NCBI GenBank assembly: GCA_964371445.1
Contig: CAYJLK010000003.1
Span: 1,108 to 65,107, forward strand
From: an uncultured Candidatus Saccharibacteria bacterium
GTDB taxonomy: Bacteria > Patescibacteriota > Minisyncoccia > Phycocordibacterales > Phycocordibacteraceae
DNA length: 64,000 nucleotides
Direction: 5' to 3'
The notes under the pieces are model-generated. The model made no database searches. It was not told the DNA's origin and worked only from the letters and a program-made list of their open reading frames with translations. Positions 56,047 to 61,747 of this stretch are shown here, piece after piece (position 1 is the first letter of the stretch; each line of letters starts with the position of its first letter). The position numbers and the translations under genes were made by a program.

Positions 56047-59000
56047 CTAACGGGGTACCACAAGATTGAGGATTTTCCCCGGTACATAAATAACCCTCTT
56101 TGGCTCATGTTCGCCGAGCGCGGTGGTCACGGGCGGGAGTTTGAGCGCTTGTGCAACGGCATCTTCTTCAGAGGCATCGACAGCGAGCGTAATCGAGCCA
56201 CGACGTTTGCCGTTCACCTGTACAACAACTTCTTTCTCGGTCGCGATGGCGATGTCAGCTGTCGGCCATGCGTGCGCGTGCACACTCCCCTCTTCGCCGA
56301 GTGTCTCCCAGAGGTGCTCGGCGAGATGCGGCGCAAACGGCGCGAGCATGACGATGAGTTGCGCGAGCGCGGCCTTCGGCACGGACGGCGCCGCTTCGAG
56401 CTCGTTCACGAGTATCATAAGCGCTGCAACTGCGGTATTAAGTTTAAACCGATCTCCGTCTCCGGATACTTTCACGCTTGCCGTCGCGAGCGCCTGCTTA
56501 ATATCTTCTGGAGTATCCTCAGGCATGGATGTCGTAAGTCCATATTTCTCAACAAGACGGGTGATGCGCTCAAGGAACTTGCGCATCGATGCGACGCCAT
56601 CCAGATTCCACGGGTAGCTCCCCGGCTCGTTGTAGGGGCCGATAAAGGCGAGGTAGATGCGCACCGCGTCTGCGCCATATTTCTGCACGAACTCGTCGGG
56701 GTTCACGACATTCCCTTTCGACTTACTCATCTTCTGCCCGTCGGGGCCCATGATGAGTCCGCGGTTGAAGCGCTCGGCAAAGGGTTCGTCGAAGGGCACG
56801 AGTGCGAGGTCGTAGAGCGCCTTCATAAAGAACCGCGCGTAGAGCACGTGCATGGTGGTGTGTTCGCTCCCGCCGGAGTAGCGATTAATCGGTAGCCACT
56901 TCTTCATCATCGCCGCATCAGAAAAGTTGTGTGCGTCCTGCGGATTCAGATAACGCAGGAAGTACCACGAGGAATCTACGAATGTATCCAGCGTGTCATA
57001 CTCCGGCGTCCAGCCTTCGCCGAAGATGCGTATAACACGTTCTTTCAGCTCTTGTGAAGACGCAAGTGGCGCCTTACCCGTGGGAGTGAAGTCAACGTCG
57101 GTCGGCAAAAGCCAGGGCAGATGTTCGGCAGGTATCGCGTGCGGCTTCCCTTCGGGATCGTAGACGATAGGTATCGGACAGCCCCAGTAGCGCTGGCGGG
57201 AGACCAGCCAATCGCGGAGCCGATACATCGTCGCCTTCTCGCCGCCGACCGCCTGCACGATGTCCCATATCGCTTCTTCGTTATCCCGACCATCGAATGT
57301 ACCGGAATTGATAAGGTAACCATTTTCAACCAGTGCTTCTTCTTTTTCTAATAATTGCCAGACCTGTTTCTGATGATCGGGAGTAAGACGAGAAAGGACC
57401 TCATTCTCTTCGGTCCAGACAAGTGTATGTTTCTTCTGTTCTGAAGTATGGATTACACCCTGTTCAGCAAGACTTTCTACTTCTGCGATGAAAGCATACG
57501 TATGAGCACAGCGATTCTCTTTTTTATGAGATGCACAGTATTTCGCAGATGTTATCCAGCGAAGTCTTTTGACGATACGGACATTCTTAAGTGCAGCTTC
57601 TTCACGAATTTCGGTCAATGCAGCCTCTTCCGGAGTTTGTCCCGACTCGACACCGCCCATGATGGCAGTAGTAATTCCTTCGAGTGTCTCGTGCCAATTG
57701 AGGAGCGCGAACTTGCCGGTTGATTTATCACGTAAATGAACGATAACCGTATCACGTTTAACCTCCTCGAACCCATCTTGAGGAGGATTTTTAGAGTCGT
57801 TAGCGCACGGTACCACTACTTGCTTTATTGGTAACTGCATTTTCTGCGCGAACTCAAAGTCGCGTTCGTCGTGCGCGGGGACCGCCATTACCGCGCCCGT
57901 GCCATAGGACGCGAGGACATAATCGGCGATAAAAATAGGAATTTCTTCTTTCGTCGCTGGGTTAATCGCAGAAACACCCTCCAGCCTCACGCCGGTCTTC
58001 TCCTTGTTCTCGCTTCGCTCGCGCTCGGTCTTCTGCGCCGTCTTCTGTATGTATTCTCGCACCTCCACCGTGTTATTGATGGACTTCGTAAATCCATCAT
58101 CTGAAAGGAACGAGTGTTCGGGTGCAAGCACGACATAGGTGGCACCAAACACCGTGTCCGGCCGTGTCGTGAATACTTTAATCTTCGTGTCTCGCCCAGA
58201 AACAGATATATTGAGACTTTCCAAAACGTCGGGCTCTTCTTTGTCTGTGTAATGCTCTCTTTTTGATGTTCCCGTAACGAGCTCTGCGTCGAGGTTTGCG
58301 GCCATCTTCTCCAAATAGACAATCCGGTCTTCTTCTTTGAGATCCGAAAGTATCAGGCGTTTAGGCGCTAACTTTTTAAGTGTTTCGAAATCAAATTCCC
58401 ATGAGAACGTAGTATGGAAGTTTTTATCTTCATTACTGTGTTTCGGATCCTTCGCTGCAGCGACGAGTACGAGTTCGCGAATAGGCTTACCGTGTTTTAC
58501 CAGCGCTTTCATCGCCACTATCGCACCTAGACTATGCCCGATGAGAACAGTGTTCTTATCCATCCGGCAGTTTTCCAACACATAAGCCACTTGATCCTTC
58601 TCCGTTGGATGGTCGGTATCCGGCATTTGCGGTGCCTGCACTTCATAACCCTTATTTTCTAGTTCTGTCTTTAGCCACGGGATGAAGTTTTTGTCTGCGC
58701 GGCCAGTCCATCCGTGCAGGATGATGAAGTTTGGTTTGTCATTATTGGCAATTGAGAACTCGAGATACGCGCCTTCCGACTTTCCTATCCACGCCCGTTG
58801 CGCCGTCTTAATCTCTTCGCGCCACGGGAGCGCATCGAGACCGGTCAAAAGCCGCTCAGCATAGTCGGTAATCTTGAAGAACCACTGCGTGAGCCGCTTC
58901 TCCTCAACTTCCGTACCGCACCGCTCGCAGTGCCCGTCGATGACCTGCTCGTTGGCGAGCACGGTCTGGTCCTTGGGACACCACTTCACCGCCGCCTCCC

Positions 59001-59451
59001 GATGTTCGGCAAGCTTGTGCTCAAAGAGCTTCGTGAAGAGCCACTGCGTCCACTGGTAGTAGCCCGGGTCGCAGGCCACCACCTCCTTACTCCAATCGAA
59101 CGACGCGCCCATGCTCTTGAGCTGGGTACGCATCCGCTCCATGTTCTGGTAGGTCCACTCCTTGGGGTCGACACCGTGCTTGATCGCCGCGTTCTCAGCC
59201 GGTAATCCGAATGCGTCGAATCCTATCGGGAACAGCACATTCTTCCCGCGCATGCGCAGCAGACGCGCGTAGATGTCGGTCACAGCAAAGGCGTACCAGT
59301 GGCCGATATGCAGGTCGCCGGAGGGATAGGGAAACTCGACGAGAAGGTAATACCCCTCTTTGGACTCGTCTTTGAGATCAGTGCGGTAGAGATCGAGACT
59401 TGCCCACTTCTCTTGGGCCTTCTTCTCTATCTCGCGGTGATCATACGCCAT
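56047..59451 (-). CDS. leuS: Leucyl-tRNA synthetase carrying two extra in-frame inserted domains (alpha/beta serine hydrolase and Nudix-like), 1134 aa
   Basis: HIGH (PSGDLHIGHWYAF) and KMSKS (KMSKSKGN) present, with a CP1 Thr-rich start TTRPDTVFGATYVVLAPEH. Two ~185- and ~150-aa insertions of lower GC lie relative to the bacterial LeuRS landmarks. Confidence 0.9.
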   Translation of the reverse strand: MAYDHREIEKKAQEKWASLDLYRTDLKDESKEGYYLLVEFPYPSGDLHIGHWYAFAVTDIYARLLRMRGKNVLFPIGFDAFGLPAENAAIKHGVDPKEWTYQNMERMRTQLKSMGASFDWSKEVVACDPGYYQWTQWLFTKLFEHKLAEHREAAVKWCPKDQTVLANEQVIDGHCERCGTEVEEKRLTQWFFKITDYAERLLTGLDALPWREEIKTAQRAWIGKSEGAYLEFSIANNDKPNFIILHGWTGRADKNFIPWLKTELENKGYEVQAPQMPDTDHPTEKDQVAYVLENCRMDKNTVLIGHSLGAIVAMKALVKHGKPIRELVLVAAAKDPKHSNEDKNFHTTFSWEFDFETLKKLAPKRLILSDLKEEDRIVYLEKMAANLDAELVTGTSKREHYTDKEEPDVLESLNISVSGRDTKIKVFTTRPDTVFGATYVVLAPEHSFLSDDGFTKSINNTVEVREYIQKTAQKTERERSENKEKTGVRLEGVSAINPATKEEIPIFIADYVLASYGTGAVMAVPAHDERDFEFAQKMQLPIKQVVVPCANDSKNPPQDGFEEVKRDTVIVHLRDKSTGKFALLNWHETLEGITTAIMGGVESGQTPEEAALTEIREEAALKNVRIVKRLRWITSAKYCASHKKENRCAHTYAFIAEVESLAEQGVIHTSEQKKHTLVWTEENEVLSRLTPDHQKQVWQLLEKEEALVENGYLINSGTFDGRDNEEAIWDIVQAVGGEKATMYRLRDWLVSRQRYWGCPIPIVYDPEGKPHAIPAEHLPWLLPTDVDFTPTGKAPLASSQELKERVIRIFGEGWTPEYDTLDTFVDSSWYFLRYLNPQDAHNFSDAAMMKKWLPINRYSGGSEHTTMHVLYARFFMKALYDLALVPFDEPFAERFNRGLIMGPDGQKMSKSKGNVVNPDEFVQKYGADAVRIYLAFIGPYNEPGSYPWNLDGVASMRKFLERITRLVEKYGLTTSMPEDTPEDIKQALATASVKVSGDGDRFKLNTAVAALMILVNELEAAPSVPKAALAQLIVMLAPFAPHLAEHLWETLGEEGSVHAHAWPTADIAIATEKEVVVQVNGKRRGSITLAVDASEEDAVAQALKLPPVTTALGEHEPKRVIYVPGKILNLVVPR

Positions 59452-60620: not shown

Positions 60621-61142
60621 TTAGTTTGGCGCAGGAATTGGTGCGGGTTTGAGTTGGTCGTTCAACCACGTGAGTCCTCTTTCGTACCACTCCCGTGCCT
60701 TACTCTTACTCGGCGGCCGAGGAACACAGGCGCAGATGTACAGCCATATGGAAAGCGAGATCATTCCGTAGGACATCCATTGACCGCCTTTGCTTGATGG
60801 CAGTAGCCACATTAAAAATCCCATGCAACCAATAGTCATAGCGAGAACGAACCGCAGAGAAGCGTCACTCCAAGGAACGGCAAACAGTTTACCGTTCGCC
60901 AAGAATTCACTCTCTTCTTTTTCTGTACGACGAACGATACTCATCATAGAAAAAGTGTTAATGGACAACAATGCAAACATGGCGGGATCGAAATAAGATA
61001 CATTTCCTCCCCAGAAAAATACCGTGGAAGTTATCAACGTCCATTTCTGTAGTCTAAACTTCGTCAGTCCGGTGAATTGCTGGAACTTGTCGCAGAACTT
61101 CTGTGCTACAGACAGTAGCAAACTATCGAGTAATTCGACCAT
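60621..61142 (-). CDS. Hypothetical small membrane protein (174 aa), cassette B cargo
   Basis: AGAGGGAGG Shine-Dalgarno 7 nt upstream of ATG 61142; 3-4 TM helices; followed by a hairpin plus CTCTTTTTATACC terminator. Confidence 0.55.
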   Translation of the reverse strand: MVELLDSLLLSVAQKFCDKFQQFTGLTKFRLQKWTLITSTVFFWGGNVSYFDPAMFALLSINTFSMMSIVRRTEKEESEFLANGKLFAVPWSDASLRFVLAMTIGCMGFLMWLLPSSKGGQWMSYGMISLSIWLYICACVPRPPSKSKAREWYERGLTWLNDQLKPAPIPAPN

Positions 61143-61217
61143 GATCGTACCTCCCTCTCTTTTGGTTGCGTAAGGGGATATATTCCCCACCTTTATGTCT
61201 CAACGTGCTCTAAAACT

Positions 61218-61330: not shown

Positions 61331-61747
61331 TCAGGGCATGACGAAGATGAACTCGTCATTCGGTTCGAACAAGTCGTCACCAGAACAGCTGGCGCTCCCG
61401 CTCGAAATGGTGCTCTCGCCTCTCGTAAATCGCATGATGTAGGGCGACTCTGTGCCGGGTTTGTACGGCTCCATGGCGAGATTCAATACATCACCCGGTT
61501 GCGTGTCCTTGCCGTTGCGGAGCTCGTTCATCAAGAAAAAGTGCAGCCCCCTCGGCGCATGTACGAGTCCGAGTACTGCGGCCGCCGCAACAATTGCGCT
61601 GTACGGTGCCGGTTCGTTGAAGCCGAGATCGGTCACTTTGGTCCTCGTCAGATAGTGCGGACTGCCTTCGAACCTCACACTCATCCAGATGTTGAATGCA
61701 CGCTTAACCCTCGTTTGCGGAACCTTCTGTCCTGATTGAGCTGTCAT
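61331..61747 (-). CDS. Hypothetical protein (138 aa), cassette A cargo
   Basis: AAGGGGAG Shine-Dalgarno 7 nt upstream of ATG 61747; followed by a CCCCGC-TCCG-GCGGGG hairpin plus T-run; no family recognised. Confidence 0.55.
   Translation of the reverse strand: MTAQSGQKVPQTRVKRAFNIWMSVRFEGSPHYLTRTKVTDLGFNEPAPYSAIVAAAAVLGLVHAPRGLHFFLMNELRNGKDTQPGDVLNLAMEPYKPGTESPYIMRFTRGESTISSGSASCSGDDLFEPNDEFIFVMP

Follow-up and report, generated by a model that had tools for sequence, protein, structure and literature searches.

Within a 64,000-nucleotide stretch of contig CAYJLK010000003.1 from an uncultured Candidatus Saccharibacteria bacterium (positions 1,108 to 65,107, the whole of which is referred to here as the window), the leuS gene encodes a leucyl-tRNA synthetase (LeuRS) with a second enzyme nested in its CP1 editing domain. 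The 183-aa insert is almost certainly a full RBBP9/YdeN-type alpha/beta serine hydrolase, and its subfamily is very probably coupled functionally to LeuRS, because the evidence from gene fusion and that from gene neighborhood agree. In bacteria of the Candidate Phyla Radiation (CPR) and in genome bins labeled as DPANN, members of this subfamily are, with few exceptions, either embedded in LeuRS (in Saccharibacteria, in the isoleucyl-tRNA synthetase, IleRS) or encoded by a separate gene beside leuS. A first-pass annotation made from the letters of the window had proposed an in-frame alpha/beta serine hydrolase in leuS, and this proposal was supported by a Pfam match above cutoff, by phmmer and by structural comparison.

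The leuS open reading frame (ORF) has no internal stop over its 1134 codons, as first read, and its product scored 881.5 bits against the bacterial LeuRS model TIGR00396 (leuS_bact; cutoff 548.4) in a match interrupted by two inserts and thus falling into three stretches. The Pfam domains are arranged in the order tRNA-synt_1 (PF00133, aa 12-215), PF06821, the LeuRS editing domain PF13603 (aa 413-554, profile positions 12-148 of 185), PF00293 NUDIX, the remaining catalytic domain and Anticodon_1. Both the class I motifs (HIGH and KMSKS) and the CP1 editing motifs (TTRPDT and PAHDERD) are kept (Table 1). A full-length AlphaFold2 model (predicted local distance difference test, pLDDT, 85.5; predicted template modeling score, pTM, 0.68) matched E. 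coli LeuRS-tRNA complexes (5omw, 4aq7, 4arc) with a target-normalized template modeling score (TM) of 0.82 in a structural comparison with the PDB, and neither insert was present in any solved LeuRS among its matches. The leuS product is a complete bacterial-type LeuRS, and the conserved locus holds no leuS other than this insert-bearing one. Taking the length of a plain LeuRS as roughly 800 aa, the excess length is explained by the hydrolase insert together with a 148-aa NUDIX insert. The roughly 185 extra residues pointed out in the first-pass annotation are real but make up only about half of the excess; the NUDIX domain had been missed. Public annotation describes these LeuRS as 'class I tRNA ligase family protein', and some NCBI entries as 'alpha/beta fold hydrolase'.

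The borders of the hydrolase insert were set by nucleotide alignment with an insert-free allele (locus L008), which placed it in frame at nucleotides 706-1254 of the gene, between ...LEFSIA and [15 protein letters not shown].... The insert had previously been given as 58177-58731, the right place with borders about 15-20 nt off, and had been described as lying just before CP1. It does adjoin TTRPDT, but it is located inside CP1, at the tip of the first beta-hairpin, the second strand of which enters the Thr-rich editing motif, and it ends ten residues before TTRPDT. PF06821 (Ser_hydrolase, equivalent to DUF1234) matched aa 243-392 with an E value of 1.3e-10 and 41.9 bits, against a gathering cutoff of 22. 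Human RBBP9 (E 4e-8) and B. subtilis YdeN (E 2.5e-5) were the nearest solved proteins in a phmmer search of the insert against the PDB. Foldseek with an AlphaFold2 model of the isolated insert (pLDDT 86.7, pTM 0.87) returned RBBP9 first (TM 0.82-0.83, rmsd 2.6-2.9 Å over about 180 columns) and YdeN second (TM 0.78), with other alpha/beta hydrolases well behind, and the resemblance to this family noticed from the letters was thereby borne out. In the full-length model the hydrolase (aa 241-412, pLDDT mostly 84-97) forms a discrete globule attached via strands 224-236 and 423-428, the C-terminal linker at aa 416-419 being of low confidence.

Common to the insert and to RBBP9 and YdeN are the minimal alpha/beta-hydrolase fold, some 180 aa in length, the oxyanion motif HG, the nucleophile elbow GHSxG and the catalytic His. 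The motifs FIILHGWTG (H246, G247) and GHSLGA (S307) were correctly pointed out in the first-pass annotation, and alignment with relatives adds the triad His and a candidate triad acid (Table 1). In the subgroup to which the window belongs, the acid residue depends on the alignment, in which either D375 or E373/E374 of the motif LSDLKEEDR stands opposite the invariant Asp. Of 63 nested copies in a protein library, all had the Ser, the His and the oxyanion His, and 52 had Asp or Glu at the acid position; the corresponding numbers for 144 nested copies from genome and metagenome loci were 144, 143, 132 and 122. RBBP9 and YdeN differ from the module in being free-standing rather than nested and in sharing only 22-23% identity with it. 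Additionally, Glu108, the amine anchor of RBBP9, is poorly conserved in nested domains, while FFPWLK and an (E)EPxVL helix following the His are motifs of the subfamily's own.

Four states of the same syntenic locus were found, one with neither insert (L008), one with the hydrolase only (L009), one with NUDIX only (L010) and the window with both. These leuS loci were considered orthologous because they share their gene order, which is YchF, DUF5671, leuS, a Sigma70_r4/HARE-HTH protein, DUF8128 and YceG as far as the contigs reach. The L008 gene lacks both modules; its DNA is 96% identical to that of the window leuS N-terminally and 92-99% identical across most of its length, with both flanks of the hydrolase site included. 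The hydrolase module is an accessory cassette that one of two near-identical alleles can carry and the other lack. Identity to L008 is only 0.65-0.84 around the NUDIX site (window ~57100-57910, leuS aa ~514-785), which suggests a recombination tract that may have swapped part of CP1. Neither direct repeats nor microhomology were seen at the junctions in the nucleotide alignment with L008. Two small ORFs on the minus strand also distinguish the alleles, one of 189 aa (window 60621-61190), a predicted membrane protein in a low-GC patch (0.42-0.46), and one of 138 aa (window 61331-61747), both with no Pfam match. They sit between the DUF5671 gene and ychF, and are absent from L008 and L010, where ychF adjoins the DUF5671 gene.

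Compared with L009, the ratio of nonsynonymous to synonymous substitution (dN/dS) of the hydrolase insert was 0.032 (dN 0.041, dS 1.27), and that of the LeuRS backbone was higher, 0.07-0.11. Since the catalytic residues are conserved and dN/dS is low, the sequence data indicate that the hydrolase is a working enzyme under strong purifying selection, yet LeuRS can do without the module. The identical 1134-aa protein was recovered from at least 16 contigs, up to 723 kb long and drawn from several ENA samples, with unchanged neighbors; this rules out an assembly chimera or a frameshift, which the first-pass annotation had named as what would overturn it.

The remark that the insert is AT-richer than its flanks was accurate, with a GC content of 0.46 and a GC content at third codon positions (GC3) of 0.50, compared to 0.57-0.58 and 0.66-0.77 in the flanking parts of leuS. 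GC3 of the module was below that of the host gene in 117 of 129 nested loci (L012-L091 and L104-L174; mean 0.39 versus 0.47; Wilcoxon p = 7e-20), so the AT-richness is systematic and not the trace of one recent transfer. The acquisition of a foreign module, as originally suggested, agrees with this composition, with the absence of the module from an allele 96% identical and with its scattered occurrence on the LeuRS tree.

A word-index search with the insert alone retrieved 18 free-standing proteins and missed all nested ones, and an exhaustive search was therefore needed to find the latter. Using phmmer on 1.84 billion representative proteins, we obtained 1489 matches, 263 of them at E ≤ 1e-10, and most of the best ones lay within large proteins. 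LeuRS accounted for about 50 of the top 150, with the module at the site seen in the window, in the loop that holds NUDIX in the window, in a catalytic-body loop near the equivalent of aa 765-772, or in tandem with NUDIX or GNAT. Other hosts were represented once each, namely AlaRS, where the module separates the catalytic from the editing part, ValRS, where it lies in the catalytic body, and UvrA, SecA and TsaD; a free-standing fusion of NUDIX with the hydrolase was also found (P0186, P0195, P0202, P0161, P0212 and P0280 for these rare hosts and the fusion).

In species-representative genomes, relatives were detected in 172 genomes, and all of the 80 loci kept from these 172 matches, on which the following host counts rest, were nested. 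Approximately 62 were in bacterial-type LeuRS from bins named as Minisyncoccia, Paceibacterota, Doudna-, Taylor-, Kaiser-, Uhr- and Curtissbacteria, and Pace-, Woese- and Nanoarchaeota, and approximately 18 were in IleRS-type ORFs of Saccharibacteria, including Ca. Nanosynbacter and human oral metagenome-assembled genomes (MAGs). The assignment of these last loci (L039-L064 and L075) to IleRS is based on an oral MAG with 714 bits on TIGR00392 (L056; cutoff 621) and on the IleRS-type domain set of Ca. Nanosynbacter (L040), the rest being assigned by similarity. The module of Saccharibacteria IleRS lies directly before WTTTPWTLP, in the hairpin equivalent to the LeuRS CP1 site, and is often accompanied by NUDIX, a second downstream hydrolase copy or a low-molecular-weight (LMW) phosphatase. 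In metagenome contigs, which were scanned with a 5-sequence alignment because a 14-sequence stand-alone alignment was too diverse, 60 of 71 loci were nested in LeuRS, comprising every relative above ~34% identity; the remaining 11 were stand-alone and distant (≤33% identity), without leuS nearby. Over both collections, 140 of 151 loci were nested in LeuRS or IleRS.

The bins labeled as DPANN (Pace-, Woese- and Nanoarchaeota; L050, L058, L065-L068, L072, L073, L076, L081, L084, L088) contain bacterial-type LeuRS with the nested hydrolase, the N-terminal part of which is 44-50% identical to the CPR enzyme, and this reflects either CPR-to-DPANN gene transfer or mis-binning. In several metagenome loci (L122, L129, L137, L138, L143-L145, L157, L174) a class I synthetase paralogue ~25% identical to LeuRS, probably metG, was located directly upstream of the hydrolase-bearing leuS.

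The names of its closest relatives place the organism in Patescibacteria/Minisyncoccia (CPR). Among the 120 best LeuRS relatives, 94 carried NUDIX only, 17 had no insert, 7 had both modules and 2 had the hydrolase only. On a weakly resolved neighbor-joining tree of the backbone, gain and loss of the hydrolase required at least 8 state changes for 9 carriers, and sister pairs separated by branch lengths of 0.02-0.08 differed in hydrolase state. At least 5 lineages of the hydrolase insert, with 33-55% mutual identity, occur on LeuRS backbones that are 70-80% identical; in the lineage of the window, the insert is conserved as well as or better than the backbone. Nested and free hydrolases were interleaved in the domain tree. 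A single ancient insertion followed by vertical descent is not supported by these state changes, the divergent inserts and the interleaved domain tree.

The neighborhoods of seven stand-alone copies were inspected, members of the subfamily of 175-190 aa with the FFPWLK and EPxVL motifs, and 6 of the 7 were at or near leuS. Four independent copies lie on the same strand directly upstream of leuS, at distances of 3 nt (P0185, L101), 6 nt (P0154, L092), 24 nt (P0162, L096) and 36 nt (P0163, L098), and a fifth ~1.3 kb upstream (P0173, L100). The sixth (P0160) is the first gene of a co-directional overlapping string (L099:5001-9882), in which two Ser_hydrolase genes are followed by a PF04073 YbaK-like tRNA_edit gene, a Ham1-like gene and an archaeal-type LeuRS (784 bits on TIGR00395, cutoff 648.5). 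This string is in effect the unfused form of the nested architectures. The seventh copy (P0159) was found on short contigs of 3.1 and 1.7 kb (L094, L095) with no aminoacyl-tRNA synthetase within them. LeuRS adjoining a stand-alone hydrolase was without a nested copy, and a distant PF06821 control had no aminoacyl-tRNA synthetase neighbor. Additionally, in the LeuRS of L070 the hydrolase adjoins a module that weakly resembles the Ham1-like protein of L099 (27% identity, pairwise E 1e-5).

The NUDIX module of the window occupies a CP1 loop other than that of the hydrolase, with a PF00293 match at aa 567-695 (E 1.6e-7, 31.9 bits, cutoff 21.1). Its Nudix box diverges from GX5EX7REUXEEXGU by E to Q and R to T replacements and keeps the three Glu of the REUxEE stretch. 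NUDIX inserts in these LeuRS are bimodal, types A and B having <40% mutual identity and being uncorrelated with backbone similarity. In boxes of type A, the R is replaced by T, A or M, whereas the type B modules in sister LeuRS are canonical. Further small enzymes occupy CP1 loops of CPR class Ia synthetases, for example HAD at a third CP1 site in P0076, GNAT together with the hydrolase in P0223, three NUDIX and the hydrolase in L027 (1558 aa), and LMW phosphatase, NUDIX and two hydrolases in L054 (1759 aa).

Table 1. Features of the leuS gene and its nested modules, in window coordinates and residues of the LeuRS product.
Feature	Position	Strand	Basis or remark
leuS ORF, complete bacterial LeuRS with two nested domains	56047..59451	-	ORF, TIGR00396, full-length model
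LeuRS N-terminal catalytic part, aa 1-235, beta-strand into CP1	58747..59451	-	PF00133; strand 224-236
HIGH motif, aa 48-51	59299-59310	-	H48, G50, H51 invariant
Nested RBBP9/YdeN-type (PF06821) serine hydrolase, aa 236-418, 183 aa	58198..58746	-	Pfam, phmmer, alignment, AlphaFold2, Foldseek
Oxyanion-hole His246-Gly247 (ILHGW)	58711..58716	-	Motif; His conserved in nested copies
Nucleophile elbow G305-H-S307-L-G309	58525..58539	-	Ser307 codon 58531-58533
Candidate triad acid Asp375 (LSDLKEEDRIV; alternatives E373/E374, D370)	58327..58329	-	Alignment with invariant Asp of free-standing relatives
Triad His400 (REHY)	58252..58254	-	Alignment with relatives
CP1 editing domain, main part, aa 419-556	57784..58197	-	PF13603
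TTRPDT, aa 428-433	58153-58170	-	CP1 Thr-rich editing motif, intact
PAHDERD, aa 525-531	57859-57879	-	CP1 editing motif with conserved Asp, intact
Second nested module, NUDIX, aa 557-704 (148 aa)	57340..57783	-	PF00293, alignment; GC3 0.38
Nudix box, aa 599-621	57589-57657	-	Divergent
LeuRS remainder, aa 705-1134: CP1 end, second catalytic half, anticodon-binding domain, C-terminal domain	56047..57339	-	Pfam, TIGR00396, model
KMSKS motif, aa 907-911	56719-56733	-	

We propose that the hydrolase would act together with the synthetase, in cis when nested and in trans when encoded as a separate gene, on an aminoacyl ester or thioester with a free alpha-amine that is made or held by LeuRS. Mischarged tRNA-Leu, through its 3'-aminoacyl ester, would be the leading candidate substrate; a non-cognate aminoacyl-adenylate and homocysteine thiolactone are further candidates, and in another variant antibiotic mimics of leucyl-adenylate could be the substrate. 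The hydrolase would thus complement the intact CP1 site with a second site for clean-up, which would use a Ser-His-acid mechanism. We infer the substrate by analogy, and the chances that the hydrolase cleaves the aminoacyl-(thio)ester of a LeuRS-linked substrate seem to us about evenly balanced.

The analogy is drawn from RBBP9, the closest characterized relative, which traps a single Leu/Ile, Met, Phe, Tyr or Trp on its catalytic Ser and requires a free alpha-amine, and whose investigators concluded that amide, ester or thioester bonds to hydrophobic amino acids may be its targets (PMC8866121). RBBP9 is also cited as a valacyclovir-activating enzyme, which implies hydrolysis of the valyl ester of a nucleoside analogue. 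This valyl-ester chemistry is that of the aminoacyl-A76 ester, and the module lies one beta-strand from the Thr-rich motif in both LeuRS and IleRS; we therefore favor an accessory aminoacyl-ester hydrolase that would act on a product of the synthetase, most likely mischarged tRNA. The first-pass annotation had speculated about an extra aminoacyl-ester hydrolase or editing activity; this is unproven but now appears better founded, given the stand-alone homologues directly upstream of leuS, the one string that includes a YbaK-like deacylase gene, and the chemistry of RBBP9. Only tentatively do we extend it to the proposal that the nested and leuS-adjacent PF06821 subfamily may represent a new serine-hydrolase (acyl-enzyme) class of proofreading for mischarged tRNA-Leu and tRNA-Ile or their aminoacyl-adenylates, in cis or in trans, in episymbiotic CPR bacteria, among them human oral Saccharibacteria, and in DPANN archaea, within a set of exchangeable quality-control cassettes (hydrolase, Nudix, Ham1-like, YbaK-like, GNAT) in class Ia synthetases.

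Several observations weigh against a role in proofreading. TTR[PVIA]DT and PAHDxRD are intact in hydrolase-bearing LeuRS, as in insert-free ones, so that the need for a second deacylase is not obvious. Rare copies of the module sit in SecA, UvrA and TsaD and, in ValRS, AlaRS and LeuRS, at sites other than CP1. The insertion site may merely tolerate insertions, since CP1 loops also take NUDIX, HAD, GNAT, LMW phosphatase and a Ham1-like module, and the near-identical LeuRS of L008 is without the hydrolase. Only 14 of 63 nested domains have Glu at the position equivalent to Glu108, the alpha-amine anchor of RBBP9, and the pTM of the full-length model is modest, as given above.

Some of these points would also fit a passenger enzyme, that is, an independent small esterase or aminopeptidase that is unlinked to tRNA charging, resides in permissive loops of large essential proteins in reduced genomes and gains constitutive expression there, with the vicinity of leuS being merely where the cassette moves in and out. 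The hosts SecA, UvrA and TsaD, the varied sites in LeuRS, ValRS and AlaRS, the unrelated NUDIX, HAD, GNAT and LMW phosphatase domains in the same loops, the presence or absence of the module between alleles 96% identical in DNA, the patchy distribution with its at least 8 state changes for 9 carriers, and the systematic AT-richness all agree with it. We nevertheless consider it unlikely, because the choice of host is extremely biased (LeuRS or IleRS in 140 of 151 loci), the same hairpin is used in LeuRS and IleRS, selection is stronger on the module than on the host gene, and 6 of 7 stand-alone copies are at or near leuS, in bacterial- and archaeal-type contexts and once with a YbaK-like deacylase. 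The alternative of unrelated moonlighting, which had been left beside the editing idea at the outset, is weakened by these leuS neighborhoods, although the rare SecA, UvrA and TsaD copies still speak for it.

It is quite unlikely that the module serves to detoxify a by-product, hydrolyzing homocysteine thiolactone or a similar reactive aminoacyl (thio)ester that arises when synthetases edit homocysteine. MetRS is a major producer of homocysteine thiolactone, and no MetRS was among the hosts found. LeuRS, IleRS and ValRS were among them, and homocysteine is edited by these three and by MetRS (PMC5370406). Human BPHL, a valacyclovir hydrolase, has been described as hydrolyzing homocysteine thiolactone with high efficiency (PMC4198189), and RBBP9, cited as the other valacyclovir-activating hydrolase, may cleave thioesters of hydrophobic amino acids (PMC8866121). 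However, BPHL belongs to a different alpha/beta-hydrolase family.

We regard as very unlikely an on-target immunity, in which the module, like GNAT and NUDIX in sister enzymes, would destroy aminoacyl-nucleotide or aminoacyl-ester antibiotics aimed at LeuRS or IleRS. MccF and MccE, which detoxify aminoacyl-nucleotides, would provide an analogy for such a function, but no similarity to MccF was found. Accessory or resistance functions typically show such a strain-variable, horizontally exchanged and AT-rich pattern, and natural leucyl-adenylate mimics directed at LeuRS exist; the PDB matches included the toxic moiety of agrocin 84 bound to LeuRS and a self-immunity LeuRS (3zgz, 5ah5). GNAT-bearing IleRS is, in addition, recognized by an NCBIfam exception model (NF040702). 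Against this, the hosts SecA, UvrA and TsaD do not fit, and the operon with the YbaK-like and Ham1-like genes would rather suggest quality control of a housekeeping kind.

A non-catalytic spacer with a structural or tRNA-binding role, an assembly chimera or an intein-like selfish element could accommodate the discreteness of the insert and the low model confidence of linker aa 416-419, but is extremely improbable given that Ser and His are kept in essentially all of the ~200 nested copies, that dN/dS is 0.03, that the protein is identical on at least 16 independent contigs, and that neither a Hint, intein or endonuclease domain (Pfam) nor flanking repeats were found. An intein or homing element was rejected for lack of any Hint, LAGLIDADG or HNH match and of repeats at the junctions, IA|NN...VS|GR, where no Cys, Ser or Thr immediately follows the insert. 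Compensation for a dead CP1 site was likewise rejected, as the motifs TTR[PVIA]DT and PAHDxRD are intact in hydrolase-bearing LeuRS.

Known systems offer partial parallels to a synthetase-linked hydrolase. CP1 of LeuRS, IleRS and ValRS is likewise a hydrolytic module inserted in a synthetase, where it deacylates mischarged tRNA, but it has an unrelated fold and no serine nucleophile, and the hydrolase is an additional, dispensable layer within an intact CP1. YbaK/ProX/EbsC (PF04073), AlaX and DTD are accessory aminoacyl-tRNA hydrolases that are separate from or fused to synthetases; Pfam and NCBIfam gave no match to YbaK/ProX PF04073, AlaX or DTD in the window LeuRS. A YbaK-like gene does share the L099 string with two hydrolase copies and LeuRS, although it has no kinship in sequence or fold to the hydrolase, and we know of no alpha/beta serine hydrolase that acts as a tRNA deacylase. 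BPHL, an alpha/beta serine hydrolase acting on amino-acid esters of nucleoside analogues and on homocysteine thiolactone (PMC4198189), is a functional analogue for the proposed chemistry, but it is larger, has a lid, and was not among the sequence or fold matches. GNAT-containing IleRS (NF040702) is a precedent for a small enzyme inserted in a class Ia synthetase, with a different inserted fold and no reported function. In a full-text literature search we found no description of a hydrolase nested in the editing domain of an aminoacyl-tRNA synthetase, nor of these CPR architectures, and a 2026 survey of domain insertions handled the LeuRS editing domain solely as an insert and never as a host (PMC13114784). 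The architecture is that of an aminoacyl-tRNA synthetase with an accessory hydrolytic module and is apparently undescribed; if the proofreading interpretation is right, it would constitute a new class of editing enzyme.

To our knowledge, aminoacyl-tRNA proofreading so far uses few dedicated folds, namely CP1, INS/YbaK, the AlaX and ThrRS N2 domains, and DTD. If true, the proposed function would give translation a new level of quality control, or synthetases a new means of clearing their by-products or inhibitors, in at least 172 species-level genomes, and it would matter most for minimal-genome organisms relying on scavenged amino acids. Nested, leuS-adjacent and absent are the three configurations in which nature offers the module, and it also occurs in the IleRS of oral Saccharibacteria bins, so that its function is directly testable; Saccharibacteria are believed to include cultivable strains. 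Whatever the function may be, the module is a clear example of domain-level cassette exchange within an essential gene, which is relevant to phylogenomics with aminoacyl-tRNA synthetase markers and to annotation.

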